In this document: positions 19,958-44,385 of the stretch, piece after piece | Layout: every line of letters begins with the position of its first letter | How positions within the stretch are numbered: the first letter of the stretch is position 1 | DNA from: Candidatus Omnitrophota bacterium | GTDB taxonomy: Bacteria; Omnitrophota; Gorgyraeia; 2-01-FULL-45-10 | Direction: 5' to 3' | DNA: 64,000 nt | Assembly: GCA_016935115.1 (NCBI GenBank) | Contig: JAFGRN010000004.1 | Span: 5,778 to 69,777, forward strand | The notes under the pieces: model-generated | Told to the model about the DNA's origin: nothing | Seen by the model: the letters and a program-made list of their open reading frames with translations, nothing else | Databases searched by the model: none | Translations under genes and position numbers: made by a program

Positions 19958-19959
19958 GA

Positions 19960-21955: not shown

Positions 21956-21971
21956 GGCAGCTGCTTTCATA

Positions 21972-24081: not shown

Positions 24082-24086
24082 AAATT

Positions 24087-24398: not shown

Positions 24399-24460
24399 AC
24401 TCCCTCCTTTTGTTCCCGGCCTTGCTCAGGAAAATAATTCCGAGTCTGCCGATGGATTTT

Positions 24461-25099: not shown

Positions 25100-25104
25100 C
25101 TCGC

Positions 25105-25323
25105 CTATTTTGACGGCGTGTAATTCCTGGTAGTTCTGATTATATTCCCGGAGGAATCATACTCGGTCACTTCTTCATATGCAACAGGCCTCTCGGAATC
25201 ACGGCCAAAGGCCTCTTTCGCTGATTTGAAGACCGGCTTCGACAGCGCAATCGCTCCGAAAATACCAGCTATCAAGCCTATGATAACAAGAATCGCTATT
25301 ACAAAAGGTATTAATTTTTTCAC
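25105..25323 (-). CDS. Small single-pass membrane protein, function unknown
   Basis: 72 aa. The N-terminus MKKLIPFVIAILVIIGLIAGIFGAIAL forms a TM segment, and the ORF is tightly spaced with its neighbours. Confidence 0.55.
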   Translation of the reverse strand: MKKLIPFVIAILVIIGLIAGIFGAIALSKPVFKSAKEAFGRDSERPVAYEEVTEYDSSGNIIRTTRNYTPSK

Positions 25324-25352
25324 GAAATCCTCTTAAACTTAAACATATTCCT

Positions 25353-26045: not shown

Positions 26046-26190
26046 AGCCACCTCCTTGCTAAAAATTAAAAAACAACCCTTGAGGGTTGTCAATAATCCT
26101 ATTTCTGCCGTTTTATTCATCGTCATGGTAACCTCCCTCCCCGAGTTGCAAAATTATATTACCACTTATGCAGAAATTAGTCAACAACTA

Positions 26191-26220
26191 TTGGTAGGAA
26201 GCGGCTGGGCATGGTATAAT
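26191..26220 (+). promoter_or_regulatory. Candidate promoter of the hydrolase/acyl-CoA ligase pair; possibly a leaderless transcript
   Basis: TTGGTA-18 nt-TATAAT, with the -10 box ending 7 nt before ATG 26228. There is no Shine-Dalgarno sequence in between. Confidence 0.45.
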
Positions 26221-26227
26221 AATACAT

Positions 26228-27037: not shown

Positions 27038-27057
27038 ACTCTAAGAATGGCGGTGTC

Positions 27058-28770
27058 ATGATCGATTCCATGGTCAGGAGCATTCTCCAGGATATTACCA
27101 TAAAAGATATCCTTGAAGCCATTAACAAAAAACACGGCAACAAACCGGCTCTCCGGATAAAGAACGACGATGGCGCATTCAGGGAAATATCTTTCGTAAA
27201 ACTTGGCCGGCGTGTAGTAAGCATATCCTCCGCGCTGATCAATCTCGGGATCAATAAGGGCGACAGGGTAGCTATACTCTCCGAAAACCGGCCCGAATGG
27301 GCCTGCGCCTACTTTGGCATACTTTCCTGCGGCGGCATAATTCTTCCTCTCGATGTAAAGCTATCCGATACAGAAGTTGAATTTATCCTGAATGACAGCC
27401 GGGCAAAATGCATCTTCCTGAGCGCTAAATATGCCGGCACAATAGACCGCATCAGAAATGTCCTGCCTTATCTCGAAAACATAATCCTACTGGATAAGAC
27501 CGATCGCGATGATCTAATACAGATGGGAAAACTCAGACCGCACAGAGGAAAAGAACGGACCAGGCATATCTATCCTTCGGATACCGCCATAGTAGTATAC
27601 ACATCCGGAACAACCGGGGTAGCGAAAGGCGTGGAGATAAGTTGTAAGAACCTGCTCTTCCAGGTCTCGGAGTTCAGCAGAATAATGGCTATAACCCCCA
27701 AAGAACGCCTTCTTTCGGTTCTTCCGTTAAACCATATGCTCGAGATAACGGGCGGCCTTATAGCGCCGCTCTATATAGGCTCATGCGTCACATATTGCGA
27801 TACCCTGAAGACCAATGAGCTGCTGCCGATAATAAGAGAGGCGGGCATCACCGCCATTATATGCGTGCCTCTGGTCCTCAAGATGCTCTATTCTTCCATC
27901 ATGAAAAAAGTATCCAGGCTGCCCGGCTACAAGCGGGCAGCTTTCGACATGCTCTTTAAACTGTCGAAATACCTGCTCATGCGCAATATATGGGCGGGAA
28001 GGATTCTATTTCGTTCAGTGCATAAAGAATTTGGCCACCGCCTGCGTATATTCATAAGCGGAGGCGCGCCTCTCGATAGCGAAGTTGAAATCGGGTTGAG
28101 CGCCCTCGGGTTCAGGATACTTCAGGGATACGGCCTAACCGAAACCGGCCCGGTCATATCAGTCAACACCCTGGAAGACCGCAGGTTCGGCTCCGTGGGG
28201 AAGCCTCTGCCGGGAGTCGAGGTTATGATATTGAGGGAGAAAAGTTCCGATAGCGGCGGCGAGATACTGACGCGCGGGCCGCATGTAATGAAAGGTTACT
28301 ACCGGAATCCGGAAAAGACATCGGAAGTCCTAAGGAACGGATGGCTGCATACGGGCGACCTGGGGTATATTGATGAGGATGGTTTTCTGTTCATATCCGG
28401 CCGGAAGAAGAACCTGATAGTGCTAGGGGGAGGGAAAAAAGTATTTCCCGAAGAAGTCGAAAGCGTAATAGGCGCAAGCCCCTACATAAAAGAGATCTGC
28501 GTAATGCCGAGAACCGCCGCCAGGGGCCTGCGCGAGGGCCATGAAGAGGTCTTCGCGGTGATAGTGCCGAATCTTGAAATTCTCGAAGGGCGCGGAATAG
28601 CTTCGCGGGAGGAGATATCGCGTATCATAACATCCGAACTCGCGCGTTTGGGCGGAAAACTCGCCCCTTATAAAAGAATAACGGCCTTTGACATCTCCTA
28701 TGAGGAACTGCCGAAGACCGTTACAAAAAAGATAATAAGGCCTGCCGTATCCAGGATGGTTGCTAAATAA
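27058..28770 (+). CDS. AMP-dependent synthetase/ligase (long-chain fatty-acid--CoA ligase-like)
   Basis: AMP-binding motif YTSGTTGVAKGV, plus GYGLTE and a TGDLG...GR.K-type C-terminal domain. The start is ATG 27058, or TTG 27034 which overlaps the upstream stop. Confidence 0.9.
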   Translation: MIDSMVRSILQDITIKDILEAINKKHGNKPALRIKNDDGAFREISFVKLGRRVVSISSALINLGINKGDRVAILSENRPEWACAYFGILSCGGIILPLDVKLSDTEVEFILNDSRAKCIFLSAKYAGTIDRIRNVLPYLENIILLDKTDRDDLIQMGKLRPHRGKERTRHIYPSDTAIVVYTSGTTGVAKGVEISCKNLLFQVSEFSRIMAITPKERLLSVLPLNHMLEITGGLIAPLYIGSCVTYCDTLKTNELLPIIREAGITAIICVPLVLKMLYSSIMKKVSRLPGYKRAAFDMLFKLSKYLLMRNIWAGRILFRSVHKEFGHRLRIFISGGAPLDSEVEIGLSALGFRILQGYGLTETGPVISVNTLEDRRFGSVGKPLPGVEVMILREKSSDSGGEILTRGPHVMKGYYRNPEKTSEVLRNGWLHTGDLGYIDEDGFLFISGRKKNLIVLGGGKKVFPEEVESVIGASPYIKEICVMPRTAARGLREGHEEVFAVIVPNLEILEGRGIASREEISRIITSELARLGGKLAPYKRITAFDISYEELPKTVTKKIIRPAVSRMVAK

Positions 28771-29209
28771 TACTCTCCTTAGCAGAAACTGTCTGCTGCT
28801 CAATCTTCATCACGGGCTTCTGGGGTGCCAAGACTTTTTCCGAGAACAGGTTCTTGGCTATCCACTGTTTAGCGGGGGTGCTTGGCGAAGCTACTTCGAC
28901 CTGTGTCTGTTTAGCGCTTACTTCGCCAAAATATACCCCGACCGGCGTGGTATCCGGGGTCAGGTAAAATACAGCTATCATATCGCCGGTCGTTGCGTAG
29001 ATAGAGACATTGGGCATCTCTTTCAGCAGCCTTCTCATCTTCGCATAGCACTTCTCGTACCTGTAGTCAAACACCTTTATATCCGCCTCGCCCCTCCATT
29101 CCTCTATCTCAGCCGTAGAATTGCCTATTAAACTGCTCATCACATCTTTAGACGTGGCACAACCGCACAATGCCGCGCATAATATCAGCGTGATAACGAT
29201 CTTTGCCAT
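28763..29209 (-). CDS. Lipoprotein, function unknown
   Basis: The start at ATG 29209 gives MAKIVITLILCAALCGCATS, with lipobox L-C-G-C. Its 3' end overlaps the convergent ligase gene by 8 nt. Confidence 0.65.
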   Translation of the reverse strand: MAKIVITLILCAALCGCATSKDVMSSLIGNSTAEIEEWRGEADIKVFDYRYEKCYAKMRRLLKEMPNVSIYATTGDMIAVFYLTPDTTPVGVYFGEVSAKQTQVEVASPSTPAKQWIAKNLFSEKVLAPQKPVMKIEQQTVSAKESII

Positions 29210-29228
29210 CTCGTCCCCCATTTGCATG

Positions 29229-29262
29229 CCAAATCAAATGCCCTCCGTTTCGCGAAGGGCAT
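29229..29262 (-). terminator. Terminator-like hairpin after the zinc-ribbon mini-gene
   Basis: The minus strand reads ATGCCCT-tcgcgaaacgg-AGGGCAT followed by TTGATTTGG. The stem is 7 bp and the U-tract is imperfect. Confidence 0.3.
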
Positions 29263-29285
29263 CTGAAAAATCACTACCTCTGCTC

Positions 29286-29444
29286 TTAACGACCGGCGTC
29301 CTTGCGCTTGGAAAAACAATCCTTGCAGTATACCGGACGGTCTTCTCTGGGTTTAAAAGGAACTTCACATTCCTTCTTGCAATCCGCGCAGATAGCCTTA
29401 TGCATCTCGCGAGGTCCGCCGAAACCGCCACCCTGATATGCCAT
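29286..29444 (-). CDS. CxxC-x17-CxxC zinc-ribbon mini-protein
   Basis: 52 aa from ATG 29444, with AGGAGG upstream: MAYQGGGFGGPREMHKAICADCKKECEVPFKPREDRPVYCKDCFSKRKDAGR. There are exactly 17 residues between the two CxxC pairs. Confidence 0.75.
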   Translation of the reverse strand: MAYQGGGFGGPREMHKAICADCKKECEVPFKPREDRPVYCKDCFSKRKDAGR

Positions 29445-29501
29445 GCTTCCTCCTTTTTTAAGCCTCTTCCTTATCGATTCGTTCCTGAATATCACGGGGA
29501 A

Positions 29502-29510
29502 AGTATACCA
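29502..29510 (-). promoter_or_regulatory. Extended -10 promoter element for the zinc-ribbon mini-gene
   Basis: The minus strand reads TGgTATACT immediately after the radical SAM stop codon, about 55 nt upstream of ATG 29444. Confidence 0.4.
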
Positions 29511-29513
29511 CAA

Positions 29514-30554
29514 TCATGGCGGGAATGGAAATATATTATTGTCATATCCGGCCTCGATGCTCCCGCGCGGCACATCACCGTGGGGCCTGAATATATTCCG
29601 GCGGCCCAGGGCCGATTCCGCGATAACGGCATTTTCTCTCCGGTAACCCATGACACTGGCGCCTTCGGCAGGATTATAAAAAATATGCCTTATAGGGCCG
29701 CGGGATGCTTCCTTTTTCAACAGCTTCCTGATCATATCTCCGTATATGCGCGAAGCCACCTTCTGCCCGAATGACTGATGGAATGGGCCGGCCAGCATAT
29801 CCCTCCCGCCAATAAGCCCTTCCGAGGGATGGAGCCCGCACCGAAGGACTTTTACTCCGCTTTTTCTGAATATTCTCACAAGGCTCGCGCAACGCGCGAC
29901 CGCCTCATCTTCGGTAAGCGGGCTGTATCTTCCACTCTTCCACATAACGGCCAGGGCCGTACCTCTCATAACAATAACCGGATATATCCTGACTTCCGAG
30001 GCTTTCATGGCGATCGACATGCGGGCTGTAGCCAGCTCTCCGGCAGGCGTACTGCCCGGCAATCCCACCATAATCTGATGCCCCAAAGTAAATTTCTCCA
30101 TACGGATAAACCGCGACGCTTTCCTGACATTGGCCGGGGTATGCCCCCTCTTCGCGGCGTCCAATACTCTGGCGGACATGGACTGCACTCCGAGCTCGAT
30201 ACAGTTAACATGGCATCTCTTAAGCATCTTCAGGATATCTTCATTTATGCAATCCGGCCGTGTAGATATCCGGATGCCGTGAATCCGGTGGCTCCTGATA
30301 AAAGGCCGGACCGCCATTAAATATGCCTCCTGTTTTTCTATCGGCAGGGCTGTAAAACTGCCACCGAAGAACGCGGCTTCCCTTTTCGTTCCTGTGTCCG
30401 GGATCGTCTTAAGGTATTTTCGGATGGTAGAAGATATTTCAGATACGCTTACAGCTCTCTTCCTGCCGGATATTTTCTTCTGCGCGCAGAAGATGCAGGT
30501 ATGCGGACAGCCTTCATGCGGTATAAAGAACGGAATAGTATAATGTTCTTTCAT
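29514..30554 (-). CDS. Radical SAM protein (Elp3-like radical SAM domain only, no acetyltransferase domain)
   Basis: 346 aa. The N-terminus IPFFIPHEGCPHTCIFCAQ contains CxxxCxxC, followed by a TIM-barrel-like core (FFGGSFT, ISTRPD, ELGVQS). Confidence 0.85.
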   Translation of the reverse strand: MKEHYTIPFFIPHEGCPHTCIFCAQKKISGRKRAVSVSEISSTIRKYLKTIPDTGTKREAAFFGGSFTALPIEKQEAYLMAVRPFIRSHRIHGIRISTRPDCINEDILKMLKRCHVNCIELGVQSMSARVLDAAKRGHTPANVRKASRFIRMEKFTLGHQIMVGLPGSTPAGELATARMSIAMKASEVRIYPVIVMRGTALAVMWKSGRYSPLTEDEAVARCASLVRIFRKSGVKVLRCGLHPSEGLIGGRDMLAGPFHQSFGQKVASRIYGDMIRKLLKKEASRGPIRHIFYNPAEGASVMGYRRENAVIAESALGRRNIFRPHGDVPRGSIEAGYDNNIFPFPP

Positions 30555-31102
30555 ATGAATGACAATGCTACGGTAGCGGCCGTGGCCAGAACCTGGCCCG
30601 CTACCGATATTACCGTGCGGGTAGAGCTGCGCTTCTTTGCCTCTTTCGTAACAGCATTCATTGCGGTGAGACAGGTTATCCTGACCGCGTTCTGCTGCTC
30701 TGTAAGCTCGCCCGCGCGATCCTCATAGTAAGAACCTGATTTGCAATCGAGGCAGTCATAAAGCCTCATAAGGTCGCAATCCTTCCATTTTGAGAGGGTG
30801 ACCTTATCATATTCTATATCGAATATTCCGGATTTTTTTATATATTCGGACCTTCTTTTGGCCAGGAGCGCCTGATACTCCTCCAGGGCAATGCTGCGGG
30901 CCACACCGTCTTCCCATGTTTCTTGTTTTATATTATATATGAGAGCTACCAGCTTGAGGGCCTTATCATCATCGAGATCCTCGAAATCTTTGAATTCCTG
31001 CCCCTCTACCCTGTATGCGCACGGATATCGCATAGTGGCGCAGCCGCATACAAAGATGCACAGGCAGGCAAAGAAAACCGATATCCGGACAGGACCTTTC
31101 AT
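30551..31102 (-). CDS. Cys-rich lipoprotein with a C-terminal hydrophobic segment, function unknown
   Basis: 183 aa with the signal/lipobox FVCGCA, a cluster CDLMRLYDCLDC, and the C-terminal segment VISVAGQVLATAATVALSFI. An ATGA overlap joins it to the radical SAM start. Confidence 0.65.
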   Translation of the reverse strand: MKGPVRISVFFACLCIFVCGCATMRYPCAYRVEGQEFKDFEDLDDDKALKLVALIYNIKQETWEDGVARSIALEEYQALLAKRRSEYIKKSGIFDIEYDKVTLSKWKDCDLMRLYDCLDCKSGSYYEDRAGELTEQQNAVRITCLTAMNAVTKEAKKRSSTRTVISVAGQVLATAATVALSFI

Positions 31103-31111
31103 AGGCCGCTA

Positions 31112-31582
31112 TTATTTCTTCTTCATCGCCGCAAAACTTCCGAATAGGGATTCCAAGACCGCGCTCCACATCACCTTGTACTGCTTATCAAAATATATGG
31201 AATCCGCAACAGGCTTCCCCTGAACGGTCATCAAGAGGACGCCTGTCCGGAAGATCTTTTTGTCATCATCTCCGCCGGAAATCATCTTGGACCAACGAAC
31301 CTGCCCTTCCATCTCAATCGAGCTTCTTACAATCGGCTCATAGACTTCCAGCAAAAGAATGTCACCCTTATTCAATTTCCTGACAGAATCAAAGCAGAGA
31401 CCCTCGACACTCACGTTCCTGCACACACCCAAATATTTATTATTATTATCACCGTCGGGGGCCGTTTCAACGACCCGGAACTCGACCCTTGTATTTATAT
31501 CATACTTGACCTTGAAATAGACCTTAAGCTCCGTATCGAACCTCGAGAATTTCCGTCTCTCTAAAAAACCCTTCTTTTTCAT
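31112..31582 (-). CDS. PilZ-domain (c-di-GMP-binding) protein
   Basis: Contains the RxxxR motif (RRKFSRF) and the N-x-S-x-x-G motif (NVSVEGL). I start it at ATG 31582, which has GGGAGG upstream. Confidence 0.8.
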   Translation of the reverse strand: MKKKGFLERRKFSRFDTELKVYFKVKYDINTRVEFRVVETAPDGDNNNKYLGVCRNVSVEGLCFDSVRKLNKGDILLLEVYEPIVRSSIEMEGQVRWSKMISGGDDDKKIFRTGVLLMTVQGKPVADSIYFDKQYKVMWSAVLESLFGSFAAMKKK

Positions 31583-31619
31583 ATCATCAGCCTCCCGATC
31601 TTTCTTCGGCAACAGCGCC

Positions 31620-32384
31620 TTATACCTTCAGCGGCAGTATGTGCCTCCATTTATCCGAAAGGATCCTGCAGTTCTTCTTGAGGAGCCCATAATCATCTTT
31701 TACATACTCTTTATATTCTGACGCCCTTCTTGACCTTCCGCCATTACCTACATGCATGGCCTCGACATTTACAACCACATTCCTGTATCCGGCGGCTATA
31801 CTCGCCAGCGAAACATCGAGATCATAGCAGTGCATAAAACCATAGCTCTCATCCAGGCCCTTTATGCGCTCCAGCAGCTGGCGTCTCATCGTAAAACATA
31901 ACCCGTCAACCACGGCGACATCCGAAACATCCTCATCCATGGGCTCATTCAGATCCTCATTCTGGAGGTTATGCCGGAGGCTGGATTCATTGACGCATCC
32001 ATTCTTATATATCTCTTTCCTTCCGGCCAGGCCGGCTATGCCTATCTTCGGATCCTTGTCCATTACTTCCGCTATCTTCTGAAGCCACCTTTCATCCATT
32101 ATTATCACATCATTATGGATGACCATTATATAATCGTATCGCGCGGCGGCTATTCCCTGGTTTATAGCCCTGATCGGCCCGAGATTCCTGTCATTCCTTA
32201 TGTAGGTTAGAGGCGCCTTATCGTTTATGCCGTCAAAGTATTGCTTCACTTCCGGCCTGGAGCCGTTATCTATTATGATGAGTTCGAACGGGATTCCGGC
32301 CGAATTTCTCAATATCGATTCCACAGCCAGCTTTGTGTAGCCGAGCTGGTTCCAGACCGCGATTATAATGCTCATGCCTCTCAT
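31620..32384 (-). CDS. Family 2 glycosyltransferase
   Basis: 254 aa. The N-terminal SIIIAVWN...IIIDNGS region and a later HND/DGLCF region are typical of the GT-A fold. Confidence 0.85.
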   Translation of the reverse strand: MRGMSIIIAVWNQLGYTKLAVESILRNSAGIPFELIIIDNGSRPEVKQYFDGINDKAPLTYIRNDRNLGPIRAINQGIAAARYDYIMVIHNDVIIMDERWLQKIAEVMDKDPKIGIAGLAGRKEIYKNGCVNESSLRHNLQNEDLNEPMDEDVSDVAVVDGLCFTMRRQLLERIKGLDESYGFMHCYDLDVSLASIAAGYRNVVVNVEAMHVGNGGRSRRASEYKEYVKDDYGLLKKNCRILSDKWRHILPLKV

Positions 32385-32404
32385 AATATATGCCCTACCT
32401 TAGG

Positions 32405-32806
32405 TTACGGTTCCATTCCGACGGGCCTGCGCAGCGACTTCTTCTCGGAATGCATCCTTTTATCCCTGAGCATCTTCTCCCTGGAGCGGCGCGAGCGCCT
32501 GCGTTTCTGGCGGCGGATCTTCTCCATCCTTTTCCGCGATTCCGCCTCACGGCCCAGGACAATCGACTCTATCTTATCGGCAAGTATCCTTCTGGCCAAA
32601 AACCGGTTAAGGGCCTGGGACCGGGTCTCTTGGCATTTGATCTCGATGCCAGTTGGCCTGTGCTTAAGATAAACGCACGCGGATGTCTTATTGACCTTCT
32701 GCCCGCCCTTCTTGCCGGCAAGAATAAATAACTCCGTAATGTCCGCTTCGCGTATTCCAAGAGCAGCCATCTTTACAGCCAGCGCTTCTTCTTTATTCTT
32801 ACGCAT
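32405..32806 (-). CDS. GGQ-domain peptidyl-tRNA hydrolase, ArfB/ICT1-like ribosome-rescue factor
   Basis: 133 aa. It contains GKKGGQKVNKTSACVYLKH.PTGIEIKCQETRSQ..N, followed by a very basic tail (RKRMEKIRRQKRRRSRRSREK). Confidence 0.8.
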   Translation of the reverse strand: MRKNKEEALAVKMAALGIREADITELFILAGKKGGQKVNKTSACVYLKHRPTGIEIKCQETRSQALNRFLARRILADKIESIVLGREAESRKRMEKIRRQKRRRSRRSREKMLRDKRMHSEKKSLRRPVGMEP

Positions 32807-32826
32807 AATCCGGATGGCCGGCGCGA

Positions 32827-33240
32827 TTATCTTCGCGCACGGCTTTTTCGGTACCGCAGCAGTAATTCTCCGTAACGCGCGTCACGGCGGATATATTCCA
32901 GATCGGGATCCCTGTCCATATGTTTAAATGCCCTATAGCCGAACTTAATCGCTTTCTCGAGCGCCTCTATGCAAGAATCGGATCTCTTCAGGAGTGAATA
33001 GTCACAGGCAAGGTTATAGCGGATTGTGGGATCTGTCGGGAGCAGGTTGGCGAGCCTGAGGTCCATCTCCAGCCCTTTTGCGTACAGGCCCTTTTTAGTA
33101 TAAGCATCGCCCAGGAGAAAAAGCGCATTGACATGATCGGGGCTCTCCCTGATCACGTCCTCATAGAAAGATATCTCGAAGTCGATGTCATCTTCTTCGA
33201 GATATCTTCCGGCCTTTAATATACCCCATTCCTTATTCAT
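32827..33240 (-). CDS. TPR-repeat protein
   Basis: 137 aa with 2-3 TPR-like units (ALFLLGDAYTKKGLYAKGLE, RYNLACDYSLL). Confidence 0.7.
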   Translation of the reverse strand: MNKEWGILKAGRYLEEDDIDFEISFYEDVIRESPDHVNALFLLGDAYTKKGLYAKGLEMDLRLANLLPTDPTIRYNLACDYSLLKRSDSCIEALEKAIKFGYRAFKHMDRDPDLEYIRRDARYGELLLRYRKSRARR

Positions 33241-33282
33241 GCGGCATATTATATCATTGCCCGCGGTAATTTAGCAAAAATT

Positions 33283-33804
33283 TTATACCCCTGCGGGGCC
33301 GTCCTTGCCGCCATCATCTTTATGGCCGTGCCAATGGCCCTTACTCTTACCGCTCCTGTCCTTGAAGCGCCTCATCTTCTTCTCCATCGAAGCTTTCATC
33401 TTACCAAACTGCTCCGGTGTCAGGACCCGCTTCATGGCCGTCACCTTATCCACCCTGTACTGTATCTGCTGGCCTACCAGATTTTTCAGGTCGGCAACCA
33501 GGGTATTCACGCGGGCCGTATCCGTTACCGGTTTCTCGAGCTCCTCTTTAAGGGCAACACGCGCGGCACGGATCTTCTCTTTAAGATCCTTCGACTTAGC
33601 CATAAACTCAGCGCGGTCCTTATCGAGCGCATCCTTCTGTTCCGGTGTCAGCTTCAGCTCTTCAGCCATCTTCTTAAAGTGCGCATCTCTCTTCGCCGCA
33701 CCCTGCGGGACGCCTCTCATCTCGCCGGCATAGACAAAAGCTGCCGAAAATATAACCGCCGCGGCTGTTACCACCGCCATAAATCCGCCGATACCTCTCC
33801 TCAT
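33283..33804 (-). CDS. Periplasmic Spy/CpxP/ZraP-family (LTxxQ) protein
   Basis: 173 aa with a signal peptide, two LTPEQ motifs and a His-rich tail (GHWHGHKDD). Confidence 0.75.
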   Translation of the reverse strand: MRRGIGGFMAVVTAAAVIFSAAFVYAGEMRGVPQGAAKRDAHFKKMAEELKLTPEQKDALDKDRAEFMAKSKDLKEKIRAARVALKEELEKPVTDTARVNTLVADLKNLVGQQIQYRVDKVTAMKRVLTPEQFGKMKASMEKKMRRFKDRSGKSKGHWHGHKDDGGKDGPAGV

Positions 33805-33858
33805 AACATCACCCCCCTTTTTATCCCTTAGACATGTGTATTATAAAAAAAGTTCCCG

Positions 33859-34335
33859 CTACAGAAGTAATTCCGCCCCGGTCCCTATGTCGGTATTGAA
33901 GATACCGTAACCATTAACCTCTTCGGCATCAAGGTTCGTTATATAACCCATCTGTTCATCCAGATATTCGTTCAGCGGGTTCTTTCCCGCCACCGGTACC
34001 GCCACAACCAGGGCTATAATTACCGCAACCGCTGCCGCAAATGCTGCAATCGGCCCCGGATTGTGACAGAGAGAAGCGATTAGCTCCGCAATAGATTGCC
34101 GAACCGGCCGTCCCGCCGTTACGCGCTCCCTGATCCTCTCGAATATATAGGCAGGAGGCTCTTCTCTGACAGATGCCCTAAAAGGCTCTATCGCGCCGGA
34201 GTGCACCCTTTTTTCCAGTTCGCGGCAGGCCGCGCACCGGCTTATATGGGCCTCTACCTCGCTTCGCACGATTGCCGCAAGTTCTCCGTCAACGTAATCC
34301 GTAAAAAGCAGGTCTCTTACCTTTTTACAATCCAT
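33859..34335 (-). CDS. Anti-sigma factor (zf-HC2 type, single-pass membrane)
   Basis: 158 aa with the N-terminal H-x3-C-x2-C motif (HISRCAACRE) and a central TM segment. It lies directly downstream of the ECF sigma gene. Confidence 0.8.
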   Translation of the reverse strand: MDCKKVRDLLFTDYVDGELAAIVRSEVEAHISRCAACRELEKRVHSGAIEPFRASVREEPPAYIFERIRERVTAGRPVRQSIAELIASLCHNPGPIAAFAAAVAVIIALVVAVPVAGKNPLNEYLDEQMGYITNLDAEEVNGYGIFNTDIGTGAELLL

Positions 34336-34337
34336 GG

Positions 34338-34886
34338 CTATCGCCCCTTTCTTCCCATAGCAAGGAGTCTTTCACGCGCCCTCCTGAGCCTGGAACGGAC
34401 CGTATTTATATTGATATGCAGAGTATCTGCTATGGCCCGGTAATCAAGCCCCTCTATCTCCCTTAATACTATACAGGCGCGCTGGTCGGGATCGAGCGCA
34501 TCGATAAGAGGCTCTACGGCTTCCATAAACTCTTCCTTATCGAATTGCCGGCTTTCGGCCCGCGGAGCCTCCCTGTCATGCAAGGCCGGATCATACTCCA
34601 ATCTGCCACATACATGCCGCGCTCGGCATTTGCAATAGTTTATAGCGGTATTGGCCGTGATTCGGTATATCCAGGTCTTGAGCGATGACCTGAACCCAAA
34701 ACCGCGGAGATTACGGTGCACCTTCACAAAGACATCCTGGGTAACCTCATCCGCGTCATCGCGATTATTGGTTATCCGCAGCGCCACATTATAGACGAAC
34801 GGGCTCGTAGACCTGTATATATCCTCAAAAGCCGCCATATCGCCTTTTGCCGCCCTGGCTATTACATCGTTCGATATATCGGACAT
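34338..34886 (-). CDS. ECF-type RNA polymerase sigma factor
   Basis: 182 aa with region 2 (DADEVTQDVFVKV, WIYRIT.N) and region 4 (LREIEGLDYRAIADTL). Confidence 0.9.
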   Translation of the reverse strand: MSDISNDVIARAAKGDMAAFEDIYRSTSPFVYNVALRITNNRDDADEVTQDVFVKVHRNLRGFGFRSSLKTWIYRITANTAINYCKCRARHVCGRLEYDPALHDREAPRAESRQFDKEEFMEAVEPLIDALDPDQRACIVLREIEGLDYRAIADTLHININTVRSRLRRARERLLAMGRKGR

Positions 34887-34898
34887 ACTGAACCCTCA

Positions 34899-35684
34899 TT
34901 ACCTTTGACAGGCGATCCGCCTGGAAAGTTCCCTTTTTTTGACCCATTCCGCCATATCCTCGAATACCTTCTCTTTGCCGAGATCGATCGAGAGGGCATG
35001 ATACATATCGGGATATTCAATAAGTGTTTTATCGCAAACTGTAAGCTTGGTGAATACATTTCTGGCCGCTGAGGGATCCACCAATTTGTCATTACCCGAT
35101 AAGAGAAATAGGACCGGCACTTTCAGCCTTGCCTTCAATATACAGGCCATCAGCTGATCGACCATTATATTAAACAGCGTGACGGCATTTGCCGAGCGGC
35201 GCTCGCGCTCATCGGAATCCATCTTATCGCTGTAATCGGTATCGCGCGTGCACATATTGGAACTAAACGGTATTTTAAAATACCGCTTCCGATCATAGAT
35301 AAGCGCTATGAATATTTTCAGATACTCCAGAGGCGGCAGTTTCATCCTGCTGGCAAATGCGGGCGATAAGCATATAAGCCCTTCGAACAATTTCGGATGC
35401 CTGATAGCAAGCAAAAACGATTCCAGTGCTCCAAGGCTCTCACCTACCAGATATATTTTCTTTGAGGGATTAGCTCCGGAAGCTATATCGTAAATCCGCA
35501 GGATTTTATCATAATATCCAGGGGCTCCGGAAAGCTCCGGGGCATAAGACGATATGCCTTTTTTGAGAAAGAATCCGGCAAGCGCTTCCCAGCGCCCCGC
35601 ATGCGCTCCGAGGCCGTGTACCAATAAAAAAACGGCTTCCGGCGCCGGAGTCACCCATTGCCTGTAGCCGCTGACATTTTTCAT
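34899..35684 (-). CDS. Alpha/beta hydrolase (lysophospholipase-like), paralogue of 26228..27037
   Basis: 261 aa with HGLGAHAGRWE and GESLGA. It is collinear with the other hydrolase (LICLSPAF, MCTRD, IEYPDMYHAL). Confidence 0.85.
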   Translation of the reverse strand: MKNVSGYRQWVTPAPEAVFLLVHGLGAHAGRWEALAGFFLKKGISSYAPELSGAPGYYDKILRIYDIASGANPSKKIYLVGESLGALESFLLAIRHPKLFEGLICLSPAFASRMKLPPLEYLKIFIALIYDRKRYFKIPFSSNMCTRDTDYSDKMDSDERERRSANAVTLFNIMVDQLMACILKARLKVPVLFLLSGNDKLVDPSAARNVFTKLTVCDKTLIEYPDMYHALSIDLGKEKVFEDMAEWVKKRELSRRIACQR

Positions 35685-35709
35685 CAGGCCATACCCTGTC
35701 GTGAATACC

Positions 35710-36741
35710 CTAAAAGTAATTATTAAATATCTCTACGAGCCTTGTCGAAAGGCGCACTGCTATGCCGGACTCTGCCGAGGCTTTCTTATCACGCGCATAT
35801 TCGGCGAGCCCTATGGCCGTTACAAGACAGACACTCTCTATGCCGGATATTCTTCCGCGCGTATCCTTCACGGCACCCAGCTTCACAGGACAGGAGATCT
35901 TCTCTTCTATAAGCTCTATCATGCCGTCTGCCAGGGCAGAACCTCCTGTAATAATAACTGATGGAGAAGCGGATCCTTTCTTCGAACATTCCGCCAGTCT
36001 TTTCGATATCCCTGAGATTGCAGCATCGAAGCCCGCGATTTCCCTATCCAGTATATCAAAAGATTCCAGGATGCCTCCGAAGAAAACCGATATTTCCGTC
36101 AGAGAACTGCCCATATCTACAAGTATGGCGCCCGACTCCTTCTGGTTCTTGTCAAGAAGGCTCATTCCGTCGGCCACTCCGGTAAAGACGACCTCTTTAA
36201 CATCATACCCGGCATCATTAACGCATTTATATATGCTCTGGATATGGTTGCTGTTCGCGGTTATTACAAATATTTCGCAGGCAAGCCGCGACGCGTAAAG
36301 GCCGAAGGGATTCTTTATCCACGGCTGGTCATCGATCGAAAAACCACGAACTATCCTGTGAACTATCTCCCTGTCAAACGGAAGATGTATGGTGCCGGCC
36401 GCATCTATACTCTTATTTATATCAGACCGCGTTATCTCCCTGCCTCTAAGCGAAATCGGCACCATACCTGCAGACCGCGTACCTTTCAGGTCGCCGCCGC
36501 TGACATTGACATATATTTCACCGCATCTTCTGTCAGGGCCTGATTTAAGTTTTGCCAGCGCCTTTGTAACAGATTCCGTCAGGCTGCTTACATCCGTGAC
36601 CATGCCTTTTGATACGCCATGCGAATCGACCGTCGCATGCGATAATATTTCGAATCCGCCGTCTTTACCTATTAATGCCATGACTGCGGCAATCTTCGAA
36701 GATCCTATGTCCAGCCCCGTAACGACAGAAGGTTTCCTCAT
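35710..36741 (-). CDS. ftsA: Cell division protein FtsA (short form, 343 aa)
   Basis: Actin-fold motifs are present (GLDIGSSKIAAV, VDMGSSLTEI, IITGGSA), and the gene sits after ftsQ. It is about 75 aa shorter than E. coli FtsA. Confidence 0.85.
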   Translation of the reverse strand: MRKPSVVTGLDIGSSKIAAVMALIGKDGGFEILSHATVDSHGVSKGMVTDVSSLTESVTKALAKLKSGPDRRCGEIYVNVSGGDLKGTRSAGMVPISLRGREITRSDINKSIDAAGTIHLPFDREIVHRIVRGFSIDDQPWIKNPFGLYASRLACEIFVITANSNHIQSIYKCVNDAGYDVKEVVFTGVADGMSLLDKNQKESGAILVDMGSSLTEISVFFGGILESFDILDREIAGFDAAISGISKRLAECSKKGSASPSVIITGGSALADGMIELIEEKISCPVKLGAVKDTRGRISGIESVCLVTAIGLAEYARDKKASAESGIAVRLSTRLVEIFNNYF

Positions 36742-37538
36742 GATAATTTTGGCCCTATTATGACATCTTTAAAACGAACATCTATATACTTTATATTATC
36801 CATGACAAGCCTCGGATCCCTGAGTGTCCTCGCCAGGAGTTCAAGCCTATCCTTGAAACGTTCCGAGCCTATCCTGACTTCCACCCCGCCTTTAAGGTAA
36901 AAGATAAGATTATTCGGATCATTAACACTGATCGATATGACCCCGATGTTCGTAAGCTGGCGTACCTGGCCTATCTCCCGAAGAAGATCTAGCGCGCGCC
37001 TGAGATTCTTAGTCGCGGCATGCGAACTTCCGGCGCCAATATTCACGCCTATTATGATCGGCATATCATTTAGCGCGTCGACCCTGCTTCCCGCCGGAAG
37101 CACTACCCCATCTTCATCGACGGGATAGAATCTGGCCCCTTTTACAAGAGCCACCGGCCTGCGCATCTTAAGATTTATAACGAGCCTGTCGGGAGGGGCA
37201 ATGCTCACAACCACATCCTTCACGTCGCCGTAACTGTTCTGGATAAACCTGGCTATATACTTCAGGTCTATATTGAATACATTCCGTCCGCTATTCGCTT
37301 TTAAAACATAATCACTGATATAGGATGAAGCCTGGGGCGAAAGAAATGAAGACTTTAGATCCACGGATCGCAGCTTGAAATAACCCGACTCATTCAGGAA
37401 TGCCCTCACAAGCATCACCGCAAAGAATATGAAGAATCCTATAACAGCGAGCGTCATTGCTTTCGAAACCACAAAATCCCTGATTCCAGGCGCTGATGAG
37501 CCGTTCCTGCTTTTCTTTGTCTTCCTGAATCTTCCCAT
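36738..37538 (-). CDS. ftsQ: Cell division protein FtsQ
   Basis: 266 aa with a basic N-terminus, a TM segment, and POTRA plus FtsQ-type beta domains. It lies between ddl and ftsA. Confidence 0.85.
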   Translation of the reverse strand: MGRFRKTKKSRNGSSAPGIRDFVVSKAMTLAVIGFFIFFAVMLVRAFLNESGYFKLRSVDLKSSFLSPQASSYISDYVLKANSGRNVFNIDLKYIARFIQNSYGDVKDVVVSIAPPDRLVINLKMRRPVALVKGARFYPVDEDGVVLPAGSRVDALNDMPIIIGVNIGAGSSHAATKNLRRALDLLREIGQVRQLTNIGVISISVNDPNNLIFYLKGGVEVRIGSERFKDRLELLARTLRDPRLVMDNIKYIDVRFKDVIIGPKLS

Positions 37539-37547: not shown

Positions 37548-38468
37548 CTATCTTTTTAACAACGCATTATTGATAAGTTTAATACATAAATCCCCAAAAC
37601 TCAAGCCAATTGCCTGAGCGGCTTTCGGCAACAGGCTTCTTTCGGTCATTCCAGGGATCGTATTTGCCTCCAAAACATACATCTCTCCTAAATTATTCAT
37701 CATTATATCTACACGCGAAAAACACCTGCACCCGAGCGCCCTATGCGACCTCTTCCCGAGTTCCCTGGCCTTGGCCGCGGTCGCCTCATCAAGCGGCGCC
37801 GGCACAAGATACTTTGTCTCGGGATCCTTATATTTCGCCTCGAAATCATAAAGACTGCCCTTAGTGACTATCTCTATCACCGGCAACGGTTCATCATTGA
37901 TTATTCCGACCGTCAGTTCCCTGCCGGATATGTACTCTTCCAGAAGCACCAGGTCGCCGTATTCAAATGCCTTATCAAGCGCGAATGGAAGTTTTTCCTT
38001 ACCCTTAACCACGGAGAGGCCTATGCTCGATCCTTCCAGGTGCGGCTTCACAACCATAGGAAATCCGAGATCATAGCAATCCTCTATCCTGTAATCGTCC
38101 TTCTTAAATACCACATAACGCGGCACCGGAAGGGCCGACTTCTCAAATACTTTCTTGGCCAGTACTTTATCTATCGTGGTCCTGGAAGCCTCGGGACCTG
38201 ACCCTGTGTAGGCTATTTTAAGGTCCTCCAGCATCTTCTGGACAGTACCGTCTTCTCCGAATCTCCCGTGGAGCGCGATGAAGGCAACATCTATTTTATT
38301 CCTCGTGATCGCTTCTCTGGCATCACCGTGGACATCCAGCAATACGGCATCAATGCCTTCCCGCAGAAGGGCCTCATGGACCGCTTTGCCGGACATCAGG
38401 CTTATATCCCTTTCGTTCGACTGCCCGCCGGCGAGAACTCCTACCCTGCCGATAACCTTCCGTTTCAT
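37548..38468 (-). CDS. ddl: D-alanine--D-alanine ligase
   Basis: 306-aa ATP-grasp protein with FIALHGRFGEDG and E.N..PG motifs. Confidence 0.95.
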   Translation of the reverse strand: MKRKVIGRVGVLAGGQSNERDISLMSGKAVHEALLREGIDAVLLDVHGDAREAITRNKIDVAFIALHGRFGEDGTVQKMLEDLKIAYTGSGPEASRTTIDKVLAKKVFEKSALPVPRYVVFKKDDYRIEDCYDLGFPMVVKPHLEGSSIGLSVVKGKEKLPFALDKAFEYGDLVLLEEYISGRELTVGIINDEPLPVIEIVTKGSLYDFEAKYKDPETKYLVPAPLDEATAAKARELGKRSHRALGCRCFSRVDIMMNNLGEMYVLEANTIPGMTERSLLPKAAQAIGLSFGDLCIKLINNALLKR

Positions 38469-40774
38469 ATAAGTTTCACTTCCATATCAAGATCCATCCC
38501 GTAATTCTCTCTGACTTTATCCCTTACATATTCGGCCAGGTCAAGGACATCTCTGCAGGTTGCGCCGCCGCGATTTATAATAAAATTCGCGTGCTTCTCC
38601 GATATCTCAGCGGCGCCGATCCTCTTGCCTTTTAATTTCAGCATATCTATCATCTGGCCGCAGGTAAACTGAAAATTATCCGGATTCTTGAACATACATC
38701 CGGCGCTTGGGGCGTCAAGTACCTGCTTATCTCTCTTTATCTTAAGGAACCTGCGGCAACTGGAATTCAGGCTCTCTTTTCCGGACCTGTCTAACTCAAG
38801 CTCCGCTTCAAGTATTACATACCTGTCAAGATTTGAAGACCTGTATCCGAAGCGGAGATCCTTTCTGCTGAGCGTATGCGTCTTCCCGGAAAAGTCCATA
38901 ACCTTCAGCGACCTGATAAGTTCCCCTATGTTCCTGTAGGCAGGATTTTTGTGTCCGCCGGCATTCATGGAGATCGCTCCGCCCACGGTACCCGGTATGC
39001 CGACGAGCGACTCGAGCCCGCCAAGCCCTTTGTCACAGGCCGTCTTTACAAGCCTGGGCAGGCTGAAACCCGCACCGACCCTGACGGTAGTTCCGGTTAT
39101 CCTGATAGATTTAAAAAATTCATTTCCAAGATGCGCCAATAAGCCGCTGAAGCCTCTGTCGCGCGCAAGCACATTCGACCCGTTGCCGATCACGAGCATA
39201 GGCACCTTATGCTTACGCACAAACCGCAGGAGCCTTTTCAGGTCCACGGCATCTGCCGGTTCCACCCACAGGTCGGCCGGTCCGCCTATCCTGAATGACG
39301 TATGCGCGGAGAGTTTCTCGCCCGTCTTTACCTTCCCCTTGACTGTCTTCTTTAATTCCGGGGCCAGTTTCGAATAGCCCCTGTATCCCGCCGATGCGCA
39401 TGCGTTCTTATTCATCATACCGCTCAATCTGTCCGCTACGCTCTTTATATCACCGGCGCCGAGAACGAGCACTATATCTCCCGGCTTCTTGATCTTCATT
39501 ATGCGGCCGGGTATCATATCCTTCGGCAGGACTTCGACATCCGATATACCGCTATCTTTCACTCTGGTATATATGTTCATTATCGAAACGCCTTTTATCT
39601 CCTTTTCGCTTGCGGAATAGATATCGGTAAGTATCAATTTGTCCACGCCCTTAAAACATCTTCCGAATTCTTCCGCGAGGAATTTTGTGCGTGAATAACG
39701 GTGAGGCTGGAAGACGGCTATTACCCTTCTTCCTTTCCAGTTACGGCAGACATCGAGCACCGCCCTTATCTCCGTGGGATGATGCGCATAATCATCGATG
39801 AGCATTACGCCATCCGCATCTGCCCTGAGCTGGAAGCGCCTCTTTGCTCCGTCGAAATCCTTTATGGCGCCCGCTATCTCCCTGAAACTTATCCCGGCCT
39901 TCAGGCCCACAAGCACCGCGGCCAATGCATTCAGGATATTATGCCTGCCCGGTATGCTGAGACTGACCGTACCCAGCAGCCTGTTCTTATATACACATTT
40001 GAACAAGGCCCTGAAGCCGTCCATCCTGATATCCGTCGGATATATATCCGCTTCTTTCGAGAATCCGAAACTTTCGCTGTGCCTGCGGAAGCCTTTCATC
40101 ATGATGCGGATATTCAGGTCTTCAATATTATAGAAAACTGACCCTCCGGGCTTCACATTATCTATGAAGGCCCTGAAGGCGGAGCGTATATGGCCAAGGG
40201 ACCTGAAATGGTCGAGATGCTCCATCTCGATGTTCGTGATCACGGCATACATGGGCTTAAGGCGCACGAACGAACCGTCGCTTTCGTCCGCCTCGACTAC
40301 CGCATATTCCCCTTCGCCGGTCTTCGCATTGCCTCCGAACCTGCTCACTTCCCCGCCGATTATAGCTGTGGGTTTCAATCCCGCGTTTTCGAGCATTACC
40401 GATATTAGAGATGTCGTCGTGGTCTTACCGTGGGTGCCGCTTATGGCGATCCCTTTCCTGCGGTTGAATATCTCGCCCAGCATCCCGGCGCGATGCATGA
40501 TCCTGACCCTGCGCCTGAGGGCCGCCTTCACCTCCGGATTATTCCTCGAGATCGAGGAAGAGTAGACGAGGATATCCGCGTCTGCTGGGAGATTAGAGGC
40601 CCGGTGGCCAGCAAACATCTTCCCGCCCATACCCTCGAGCCTGTCGGTTATATGGTTCTTTTCGATATCCGAACCCGATACCTCATGGCCCATCTCCAGG
40701 AGTACCCGGGCGATGCCGCTCATGCCTATCCCGCCTACTCCCACGAAATGTATCTTCTTTCTGGAGCTTACCAT
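38465..40774 (-). CDS. murC/murB: Fused UDP-N-acetylmuramate--L-alanine ligase / UDP-N-acetylenolpyruvoylglucosamine reductase (MurC-MurB)
   Basis: Single 769-aa ORF. The N-terminal roughly 460 aa are MurC (GVGGIGMSGIA, GTHGKTTTT). The C-terminal roughly 290 aa are MurB (HTSFRIGGPA, IGNGSNVL, SAGCMFKNP). Confidence 0.92.
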   Translation of the reverse strand: MVSSRKKIHFVGVGGIGMSGIARVLLEMGHEVSGSDIEKNHITDRLEGMGGKMFAGHRASNLPADADILVYSSSISRNNPEVKAALRRRVRIMHRAGMLGEIFNRRKGIAISGTHGKTTTTSLISVMLENAGLKPTAIIGGEVSRFGGNAKTGEGEYAVVEADESDGSFVRLKPMYAVITNIEMEHLDHFRSLGHIRSAFRAFIDNVKPGGSVFYNIEDLNIRIMMKGFRRHSESFGFSKEADIYPTDIRMDGFRALFKCVYKNRLLGTVSLSIPGRHNILNALAAVLVGLKAGISFREIAGAIKDFDGAKRRFQLRADADGVMLIDDYAHHPTEIRAVLDVCRNWKGRRVIAVFQPHRYSRTKFLAEEFGRCFKGVDKLILTDIYSASEKEIKGVSIMNIYTRVKDSGISDVEVLPKDMIPGRIMKIKKPGDIVLVLGAGDIKSVADRLSGMMNKNACASAGYRGYSKLAPELKKTVKGKVKTGEKLSAHTSFRIGGPADLWVEPADAVDLKRLLRFVRKHKVPMLVIGNGSNVLARDRGFSGLLAHLGNEFFKSIRITGTTVRVGAGFSLPRLVKTACDKGLGGLESLVGIPGTVGGAISMNAGGHKNPAYRNIGELIRSLKVMDFSGKTHTLSRKDLRFGYRSSNLDRYVILEAELELDRSGKESLNSSCRRFLKIKRDKQVLDAPSAGCMFKNPDNFQFTCGQMIDMLKLKGKRIGAAEISEKHANFIINRGGATCRDVLDLAEYVRDKVRENYGMDLDMEVKLI

Positions 40775-40775: not shown

Positions 40776-41894
40776 TTATCTTCTTCCCGCCAATTTCACT
40801 ACCTCTTCCGCGAGGCGCGCCGATGCATCGGGCACCGCAATGTTTCCGGCCGCCTCGGCCATAGACCTCATTCTGCCCGTATCATCCATCAGGCCCGTCA
40901 CGCAATCCCTGAGCGCCTCAGGCTTAAGGCCTGCCTCCTCCATGACGATCGCCGCGCCGTGCTTCGCAAAAGCGAGCGCATTATCCAGCTGGTGGCTCTT
41001 TGCGTACGGATATGGTATTAGTATCATAGGCTTGCGCAATGCCGCCAGTTCAAATAGCGCTGATGCGCCCGACCTTGTTATTACGAGATCCGCCGCGCCA
41101 TAGGCTTCCTCTATCCTGTCGATAAAAGAGTATACTCTCGATTCAACCTCCAGCGCTTCATAAGCCTTAAGCACCCACTCGTAATCCTTAACTCCGGTTA
41201 TATGTACGACCTGGACTGATGATTTGCGCCCGGCGTCCATTAGCCGCAGGGCGTCGATGAACGCCCTGCTCAATAATGTCGCGCCCTGGCTGCCGCCGAT
41301 AACTAGGACCGTAAACTTTTTCGGGCTGAGCCCGAAGTGTCCGGGGCCGTCTTTGCGGCCGCCGTGCAATACTTCCGGACGCACGGGATTACCGGTAAAT
41401 ACTACCTTGCCTGAATCTTTATCCATCGAGGCTTTTGTCTCCCTGAAACTTACCGCTATCCTGTCGGCAAAATTAAATAGCGCCTTATTGGCCCGGCCGG
41501 GCATAAGATTCTGCTCATGCACTAACCTAGGAATGCCAAAAATCCCCGCGATAAATACTACGGGAAACGAGACATATCCGCCAAATCCTACCACAATATC
41601 AGGCCTGTATGAAAGCATCATAGGCACGACTCTGCAGATATCAAAAGCCAATTTCACGGATGCGGCCATGATCTCGGGCGACATTCCGTACGGAAGCTTA
41701 TTCGCCGAAAGCGTGGCATATCGCGCGCCCTCCCTTTCGAATATCCTCTTATCAAGGGCCTTGCCGCTGCCGATGTACATTACATCGATACCTTCGCGGC
41801 GGCTTCTTAACGAACGTCCGAGGGCTATCGCCGGAAATATATGGCCCCCCGAACCCCCCGCCGCGATCATGACCCTGATACCTGCGGATCTCAA
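40776..41894 (-). CDS. murG: UDP-N-acetylglucosamine--N-acetylmuramyl-(pentapeptide) pyrophosphoryl-undecaprenol GlcNAc transferase
   Basis: 372 aa with a GGSGGHIFPA motif. The TTG start forms a TTGA overlap with the ftsW stop. Confidence 0.93.
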   Translation of the reverse strand: MRSAGIRVMIAAGGSGGHIFPAIALGRSLRSRREGIDVMYIGSGKALDKRIFEREGARYATLSANKLPYGMSPEIMAASVKLAFDICRVVPMMLSYRPDIVVGFGGYVSFPVVFIAGIFGIPRLVHEQNLMPGRANKALFNFADRIAVSFRETKASMDKDSGKVVFTGNPVRPEVLHGGRKDGPGHFGLSPKKFTVLVIGGSQGATLLSRAFIDALRLMDAGRKSSVQVVHITGVKDYEWVLKAYEALEVESRVYSFIDRIEEAYGAADLVITRSGASALFELAALRKPMILIPYPYAKSHQLDNALAFAKHGAAIVMEEAGLKPEALRDCVTGLMDDTGRMRSMAEAAGNIAVPDASARLAEEVVKLAGRR

Positions 41895-44375: not shown

Positions 44376-44385
44376 GCATGATCCC

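Follow-up and report, generated by a model that had tools for sequence, protein, structure and literature searches.

The dcw cluster of the window ends with a short ftsA

We analyzed 64,000 nucleotides of DNA from a Candidatus Omnitrophota bacterium (class Gorgyraeia), corresponding to positions 5,778 to 69,777 of the forward strand of contig JAFGRN010000004.1 (assembly GCA_016935115.1). This whole stretch is referred to here as the window, and all positions follow its numbering unless stated otherwise. Our subject is the division and cell wall (dcw) gene cluster, which in this window ends at ftsA, with ftsZ missing. The cluster extends from position 51946 down to 35710 and lies on the minus strand throughout. 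It starts with mraZ (51497-51946) and rsmH (50401-51303), followed by an open reading frame (ORF) for an FtsL-like protein of 125 amino acids (50027-50404), ftsI (48303-49988), murE (46828-48306), murF (45476-46882), mraY (44386-45474), murD (42990-44408), ftsW (41891-42985), murG (40776-41894), a fused murC-murB gene encoding 769 amino acids (38465-40774), ddl (37548-38468), ftsQ (36738-37538), and ftsA (35710-36741). All genes matched Pfam families above the cut-offs, with the exception of the FtsL-like ORF, which had no hidden Markov model match and encodes a transmembrane helix followed by a coiled coil.

The start of ftsA is overlapped by 4 nt by ftsQ, and ftsA also directly follows ftsQ in all related loci. 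Of a canonical dcw cluster, the window thus holds the ordered run from mraZ to ftsQ-ftsA and lacks the terminal ftsZ. A first-pass annotation of this DNA had called the run complete and in canonical order, in agreement with the Pfam assignments; as a correction to it, ftsA is not of full length, and its ORF encodes only 343 amino acids.

Identity and conservation of the short FtsA

The window FtsA is ~70 residues shorter than canonical FtsA, which has ~410 amino acids. It scored 204.6 bits against the ftsA equivalog model TIGR01174 (cut-off, 175.85), matching it in two stretches, and residues 82-161 (36259-36498, minus strand) matched the SHS2_FTSA family (PF02491), the insert that forms subdomain 1C, over its full length (1-79 of 79; 70.5 bits). 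The score for the Pfam FtsA domain PF14450 was 26.2 and below the cut-off of 31.8. An AlphaFold2 model was obtained with a predicted local distance difference test score (pLDDT) of 82.5 and a predicted template modeling score of 0.82, and the top 19 Foldseek matches were all FtsA, including the proteins from Escherichia coli, Vibrio, Thermotoga maritima, and Staphylococcus aureus (E values from 2e-29 to 1e-21). Subdomains 1A, 1C, and 2A are kept, together with a C-terminal amphipathic helix, and most of subdomain 2B is missing.

The second-best structural family was PilM, a protein of the type IV pilus with an FtsA-like actin fold that includes 1C. PilM is a membrane-associated adaptor that binds a short cytoplasmic peptide in its IA-IC cleft and does not tether FtsZ (PMC7613929). 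We considered and rejected the assignment of the window protein to PilM or another actin-fold paralogue. FtsA structures were ahead by ten orders of magnitude (E value of 2e-29 for FtsA versus 1e-18 for PilM), the scores with Pfam PilM_2 and NCBIfam pilM were below the cut-offs, and the gene is located in the dcw cluster and not in a pil operon.

The C-terminal helix comprises residues 327-343 (...VRLSTRLVEIFNNYF; 35713-35763, minus strand) and was modeled with low pLDDT. Its hydrophobic moment of 0.64 was reached by 0.9% of shuffled sequences, and it is probably a membrane-targeting sequence. In the FNNYF end, residues F339, N340, Y342, and F343 were invariant among 38 family sequences. The phosphate 1 (DIGSSK) and adenosine (TGG) motifs are also conserved in the short FtsA. 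The phosphate-2 loop (residues 208-216) differs; in an alignment of 259 FtsA sequences, it reads D-[MI]-G-x-S-L-T-E as compared to D-I-G-G-G-T-T-D in the canonical proteins, and its aspartate is kept in 106 of the 138 short FtsAs. With this altered loop, nucleotide binding by the short FtsA may be changed or even lost.

These data bear on the question of whether the short ftsA has become a relic that is in decay and without a role in division. The loss of a whole subdomain, the departure of the phosphate-2 loop from the DIGGGT consensus, and the subthreshold score for the Pfam FtsA domain could be read in this way. However, the best 120 homologues listed all have intact ORFs of near-constant length, between 336 and 373 amino acids, the mean column identity over the 38 sequences is 63% with dozens of invariant positions, the position after ftsQ is fixed, and the fold is predicted with confidence. 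Because the short FtsA is highly conserved, decay is very improbable, and this conservation argues that the protein is under purifying selection.

All named organisms among the 120 listed homologues belong to Omnitrophota, distant short FtsAs likewise carry Omnitrophota names, and an identical protein at NCBI (P0001) is annotated as FtsA of a Candidatus Omnitrophica metagenome-assembled genome (MAG). In a collection of species-representative genomes, the closest ftsA loci were from Candidatus Omnitrophota MAGs, with FtsA identities of 47-60%.

The short FtsA has lost the core of subdomain 2B

At the site of 2B, the AlphaFold2 model shows a strand (residues 224-232), a single helix (233-254), and another strand (261-265). 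The helix (35980-36045, minus strand) is what remains of 2B at a site where canonical FtsA has ~65 to 85 more residues. In a phmmer search against PDB sequences, residues 6-230 aligned with FtsA residues 9-231, and residues 246-322 with residues 316-392; the 15 residues in between (231-245) take the place of a segment that spans residues 232-315 in chain 7q6g, the FtsA of Xenorhabdus poinarii, which is 90% identical to E. coli FtsA (PMC7613929). The profile of the 38-member family gave a similar picture, since positions 4-241 and 248-332 corresponded to residues 7-242 and 308-392, respectively, leaving six profile positions (242-247) for ~65 residues (243-307) of gammaproteobacterial FtsA. Between the two flanking strands, the median segment length in the alignment of 259 sequences was 40 residues for the 138 short FtsAs, as compared to 92 for the 121 canonical ones. 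In a search against a representative library, short forms matched in one stretch and canonical FtsAs of 400 to 435 amino acids in two.

Deletion of 2B abolishes FtsZ binding (PMC4281207), and in the 4A2A cocrystal structure the FtsZ peptide contacts 2B (PMC5256927). The longitudinal contact of FtsA filaments is formed between IIA and IIB (PMC7613929). The short FtsA therefore lacks the core of the subdomain that binds FtsZ and provides the filament contact. Neither a 2B-less FtsA nor the ftsA-yggS junction reported below had been described in the literature that we searched.

ftsZ is absent from the window and from related loci

A six-frame scan of the 64-kb window for the FtsZ signature GGG[TS]G[TSA]G gave no hit, and no match to the Tubulin/FtsZ Pfam families was found among the ~60 largest ORFs of the window. 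A tblastn search of the window with E. coli FtsZ (E ≤ 1e-5) was also empty; the query was validated by the ftsZ genes that it retrieved from control loci. The first-pass annotation had likewise noted the lack of a tubulin-like ORF in the 64 kb, and had suspected an FtsA-bearing lineage without FtsZ. This suspicion is now supported by published phylum surveys, the 2B-less FtsA, and the ftsZ-free loci of relatives.

For the comparison with other loci, metagenome contigs were scanned with the FtsA family alignment, and the results were classified jointly with all other loci. tblastn with E. coli FtsZ identified ftsZ within 10 kb in none of ~30 distinct short-ftsA loci (~418 kb of flanking DNA). 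In contrast, all 12 canonical-ftsA loci with enough downstream DNA had ftsZ at most 2 kb downstream. There was thus a clean association between the loss of 2B and the loss of ftsZ in the sampled loci. The Tubulin Pfam family was not detected in any called neighbor gene of related ftsA loci. A divergent tubulin gene placed directly after ftsA was considered for loci in which neither yggS nor the hydrolase gene comes next, and was rejected, as none of the neighbors examined there is tubulin-like.

The loss of ftsZ across the phylum has been published, although the information has propagated poorly, being found in one supplementary note, one figure legend, and one table only. Seymour et al. (2023) reported in Supplementary Note 1 (PMC10066038) that Omnitrophota species representatives lack ftsZ, with the exception of a single one that shares 89% identity with an archaeal protein. 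A figure legend and the supplementary table of Pende et al. (2021) also document the absence of FtsZ; the table lists FtsA as present and both FtsZ and SepF as absent in three Omnitrophica genomes, namely, Ca. Omnitrophus magneticus, RIFOXYB12_FULL_50_7, and WOR_2 SM23_29. The only "Omnitrophica" genome with FtsZ is OLB16, the classification of which was called an error by Seymour et al. (PMC10066038), and the ambiguity about Omnitrophica FtsZ in Rivas-Marin (2016) also traces to OLB16. According to the same Supplementary Note 1, ribosomal protein L30 is likewise missing throughout Omnitrophota, as is the signal recognition particle receptor gene ftsY, which no other phylum of the Planctomycetes-Verrucomicrobia-Chlamydiae (PVC) superphylum uniformly lacks (PMC10066038). 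Cell division is not discussed in the main text of Seymour et al. (2023) or in a 2026 complete-genome preprint, and in recent PVC papers and reviews, the phyla given as FtsZ-less are Planctomycetota and Chlamydiota, whereas Omnitrophota are not listed. Because the published surveys cover the phylum of this MAG, we consider ftsZ to be probably absent from the entire genome.

The simplest alternative is a rearrangement, in which an intact ftsZ resides elsewhere in the genome, outside the 64-kb window. Our view is indeed limited to part of one contig, and several phyla have fragmented dcw clusters; furthermore, a 2025 PVC comparison (PMC12283558) groups Omnitrophota with phyla that conserve the dcw genes and use FtsZ. 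On the other hand, the phylum-wide marker survey found no ftsZ apart from one archaeal-like contaminant, the three genomes tabulated by Pende et al. combine the presence of FtsA with the absence of FtsZ, the FtsZ-binding subdomain is gone from FtsA, and none of the ~30 short-ftsA loci has ftsZ nearby. A relocated ftsZ is thus hardly to be expected.

In many Omnitrophota, ftsA is followed by yggS

In other bacteria, yggS (ylmE) and yggT (ylmG), genes of the ylm region, are located just after ftsZ. In the loci L005, L009/L010, L012, L013, and L095 of deep-branching relatives, the order is ftsQ-ftsA-yggS-proC-yggT-PNP-...-ileS-dksA-lspA-lgt-rluD-aroA-mreB, without a gene between ftsA and yggS. 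The segment ftsQ-ftsA-yggS-proC-yggT was also present in 12 metagenome loci. The FtsAs of these loci share ~30-55% identity with the window FtsA, and several of the source organisms are named Omnitrophota. In the window, this run is preserved from yggS through mreB to rodA but is shifted by 14 kb from ftsA. Its yggS (20772-21461, minus strand; TIGR00044, 184 bits) is located 14,252 nt beyond ftsA and is followed on the same strand by proC (19960-20775; Pfam P5CR_dimer) and a yggT-like gene for 99 amino acids (19658-19957), in synteny with L009 and L013.

The downstream DNA could be judged in 29 short-ftsA loci by automatic count, and in addition in L012. The next gene was yggS in 12 of the 29 (and in L012), the hydrolase gene in 5, and another gene in the remaining 12. 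In those examined by Pfam or ORF listing, the other neighbors included a pseudouridine synthase gene with GATase, PilZ with a transglutaminase-like gene, giant ORFs, and genes on the opposite strand. Because ftsA most often directly precedes yggS-proC-yggT across Omnitrophota, these data suggest a clean loss of ftsZ from its usual place, by which ftsA came to lie beside yggS, and a later 14-kb insertion in a subclade. The giant ORFs, of 1952 amino acids (L031, positions 11250-17108 of that locus) and 2566 amino acids (L049, 12565-20265), lie shortly downstream of ftsA on two Omnitrophota contigs, in keeping with reports of very long proteins in this phylum.

The variety of neighbors is also relevant to the idea that a cryptic partner, either a divergent tubulin-like protein or an unrelated cytoskeletal protein, works with the short FtsA via another surface such as the FNNYF tail or 1C. 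Such a partner would account for the four invariant C-terminal residues, a degree of conservation far beyond the need of a generic membrane helix, and for the strong constraint on an FtsA whose canonical partner is gone; several window ORFs have no Pfam match. However, no candidate was identified, the strong amphipathicity of the tail is that expected of a plain membrane anchor, and there is no conserved gene of unknown function that accompanies ftsA across lineages, since the neighbors vary between yggS, hydrolase, PilZ, and pseudouridine synthase genes. We regard a cryptic partner as improbable, yet as the least improbable of the alternatives.

The run yggS-proC-yggT-PNP-ileS-dksA-lspA-lgt-rluD-aroA-mreBCD-PBP2-rodA joins the end of the dcw cluster to the elongasome genes. 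It occupies positions 6576-21461 (minus strand) of the window, 11224-21074 of L009, which shares the run from ftsA to aroA-mreB, and 9312-17065 of L013. The elongasome genes mreB, mreC, mreD, PBP2, and rodA (6576-11809, minus strand) were all assigned by Pfam, in accordance with the first-pass annotation, which had listed MreB, PBP2, and RodA; mreC and mreD are additions. Among them, mreB (10688-11809) scored 528 bits with the NCBIfam MreB model, and PBP2 and rodA are located at 7670-9409 and 6576-7673, respectively. Within the same run, the mechanically called rluD ORF (13423-14700, minus strand; 425 amino acids) overlaps lgt (14316-15059, minus strand) by ~385 nt. The L009 orthologue has 307 amino acids, and the true start of rluD is probably an internal codon.

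The hydrolase gene and the sigma module belong to a subclade-specific insertion

Directly downstream of ftsA, after a spacer of 25 nt (35685-35709) in which we found no terminator-like site, the window contains a gene for an alpha/beta hydrolase of 261 amino acids (34899-35684, minus strand; Hydrolase_4, PF12146, 107.9 bits) that resembles monoacylglycerol lipases and lysophospholipases. Its catalytic set is intact: in alignment A2, the oxyanion motif VHGLG, the nucleophile elbow GESLG, and the triad residues D199 and H229 are all invariant. It is followed on the same strand by genes for an extracytoplasmic function (ECF) sigma factor (34338-34886), with Sigma70 regions 2 (PF04542) and 4 (PF08281) only, a zf-HC2 anti-sigma factor (33859-34335; PF13490), and a periplasmic protein of the LTXXQ/Metal_resist type (33283-33804; Pfam). 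This arrangement, a hydrolase 25 nt past ftsA and then sigma and anti-sigma genes, agrees with the first-pass annotation.

The first-pass annotation had left it to be checked whether relatives share the ftsA-hydrolase junction, and this is the case for L002, L003, L004, L014, and L051. The ftsQ-ftsA-hydrolase-sigma junction is also repeated on the independent 4.4-kb Logan contig L001, which encodes the identical FtsA, and is therefore not an assembly artifact. The hydrolase orthologues are 51-56% identical across six independent ftsA-hydrolase loci. The sigma module follows the hydrolase gene in L003; in L002 and L051, it is found at a distance of another 5 kb downstream. Only relatives with FtsAs at least 58% identical to that of the window have the ftsA-hydrolase junction. 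One of the loci, L004 (CAZHIO010000008.1), is titled "uncultured Planctomycetia bacterium" and has an Omnitrophota-type short ftsA (58% identical) and a downstream hydrolase gene (51% identical). This title is probably a taxonomic mislabel, and mislabels of this type could yield spurious reports of FtsA in Planctomycetes.

A scan for promoters and terminators at the junction gave counts within shuffle expectation, and no terminator was found between ftsA and the hydrolase gene. Because of the tight spacing and the missing terminator, the sequence suggests that the hydrolase block may be cotranscribed with the dcw cluster by read-through. This proximity raises the question of whether the hydrolase, the ECF module, or both have been recruited to the dcw cluster for division, for example in the remodeling of septal membrane lipids or the control of envelope stress. 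The 25-nt gap on the same strand without a terminator and the conservation of the junction in six independent loci would be in line with such a role. However, the junction occurs only in the subclade mentioned, and elsewhere mostly yggS or unrelated genes come next. In L002 and L004, the hydrolase gene is followed by genes for glycerol kinase and a glycerol-3-phosphate-dehydrogenase-like protein, suggesting a function in the metabolism, probably the catabolism, of lipids or glycerol, and a 40% identical paralogue elsewhere in the window sits beside an acyl-CoA-synthetase-like gene. Recruitment for division is accordingly very unlikely. No evidence connects either the hydrolase or the sigma module with division, and the junction is ordinary local gene-order variation. 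The description of these genes as occupying the position of ftsZ thus holds for their location; as a functional replacement it does not, since they are part of a subclade-specific insertion and yggS is the commonest neighbor.

The lineage-specific block between ftsA and yggS measures ~14 kb (21462-35684, minus strand), and the two genes are adjacent in the above loci of the ftsA-yggS type. Apart from the hydrolase gene and the sigma module, it encodes tetratricopeptide repeat, ArfB-like RF-1 domain, GT2, PilZ, and radical SAM proteins, an AMP-binding enzyme, a second Hydrolase_4 protein, and GlgB. The gene for the second hydrolase, the paralogue mentioned above, and that for the AMP-binding enzyme overlap by 4 nt, and the pair (26228-28770) is among the few plus-strand genes of the window. 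Three ORFs of 212, 257, and 218 amino acids without Pfam match (24461-26833, minus strand) lie in the part of the window with the lowest GC content (~0.455 versus ~0.51 elsewhere). At the other end of the dcw cluster, a class A RNase P RNA (52108-52531, minus strand; 189 bits) is located just upstream of mraZ. Beyond a gene for a CT398-like protein with a coiled coil and a zinc ribbon (52966-53679) follow tRNA-Val(CAC) (53701-53777) and tRNA-Met(CAT) (53930-54006), both on the minus strand.

Comparison with other division systems

The short FtsA shares with canonical FtsA, as represented by the proteins from E. coli, Vibrio maritimus, T. maritima, and S. aureus (PDB 7Q6D, 7Q6F, 4A2A, and 3WQT), the gene position after ftsQ, the actin-like fold, the 1C insert, a TIGR01174 score above the cut-off, the best structural matches, and the C-terminal amphipathic helix. 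It differs in lacking ~65 residues (family) or more (window protein) of 2B, in its altered phosphate-2 loop, in its invariant FNNYF end, and in that its FtsZ partner is not encoded.

Within the PVC superphylum, the loss of ftsZ is shared with Planctomycetota and Chlamydiota. Chlamydiota, in which MreB, RodZ, and FtsK organize septal peptidoglycan synthesis, also keep peptidoglycan genes, ftsQ, ftsL, ftsW, ftsI, and mreB in the absence of ftsZ (PMC5147048 and PMC7029139). As had been stated in the first-pass annotation, known FtsZ-less lineages have lost FtsA as well, and PMC8178401 and PMC12283558 agree with this for Chlamydiota and most Planctomycetota. In contrast, ftsA is present and conserved in Omnitrophota, which have retained a remodeled form of it together with an essentially intact, ordered dcw cluster; compared to Planctomycetota, the cluster is complete except for ftsZ. 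The overall gene order and the murC-murB fusion resemble those of Verrucomicrobium spinosum (PMC12283558), but the cluster of that species ends with ftsQ-ftsA-ftsZ, all of which are essential, whereas that of the window stops at a truncated ftsA. As for the fusion itself, murC and murB are also fused in L007, L009, and L013 and are separate genes in L012 and L094.

An FtsA probably remodeled for life without FtsZ

Considering these data, we propose that Omnitrophota lost ftsZ in their common ancestor and kept the remaining dcw cluster, and that the retained FtsA was remodeled for an FtsZ-less life. We assign this interpretation a probability of roughly 80%; the four alternatives discussed above are unlikely even when taken together. 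According to this proposal, ftsZ disappeared from its ancestral location between ftsA and yggS-proC-yggT, and the resulting ftsA-yggS adjacency has survived in many members of the phylum. At this junction, the subclade of the window would later have gained the ~14-kb block, which starts with what appear to be an ordinary cytoplasmic lipase-type hydrolase, predicted to be catalytically intact, and an ECF sigma/anti-sigma module for envelope stress. As an orthologue of canonical FtsA, the retained protein would have adapted to the absence of FtsZ. It would no longer tether a Z ring and, judging from its homologues, would probably not form actin-like filaments. Instead, it would likely serve as a membrane-bound hub, in which 1C would recruit or activate FtsQ, FtsL, FtsW, and FtsI. 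Septal synthesis would then have to be positioned by something else, for which MreB is the obvious candidate by analogy with Chlamydia (PMC7029139).

Several points weigh against this interpretation. The losses of 2B and of ftsZ probably represent a single evolutionary event, so that their association across loci does not provide statistically independent support. Since 64 kb of the 79-kb source contig were seen, the absence of ftsZ from the source genome rests on the phylum surveys, and a tubulin-like protein of high divergence would escape surveys that use markers and profiles. The 2025 PVC comparison lists Omnitrophota among the phyla with "highly conserved" dcw genes, which implicitly include ftsZ, although it offers no readable per-genome data for this grouping and its supplements have no Omnitrophota entries (PMC12283558). 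Finally, a nonpolymerizing FtsA, recruitment through 1C, and positioning by MreB are extrapolated from homologous systems.

More tentatively, Omnitrophota could possess a third, mechanistically distinct form of FtsZ-independent division, in which the 2B-less FtsA alone acts as the membrane-anchored cytoplasmic organizer or activator of FtsQLB-FtsWI; we consider this somewhat less likely than not. In that case, the short FtsA would be a natural separation-of-function variant, indicating that the activation of the divisome by FtsA can outlive the Z ring. In a stronger version, the invariant FNNYF tail may dock an unrecognized partner that replaces FtsZ.

If the proposed interpretation is correct, Omnitrophota would represent an intermediate, with a complete and ordered dcw cluster, peptidoglycan genes, and MreB, in which FtsZ is absent and FtsA is devoid of exactly the subdomain responsible for FtsZ binding and filament formation. 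The deletion of 2B would offer a simple sequence marker of the FtsZ-less state in fragmentary MAGs. Furthermore, a naturally evolved minimal FtsA of ~350 amino acids would make the FtsZ-independent functions of FtsA testable.

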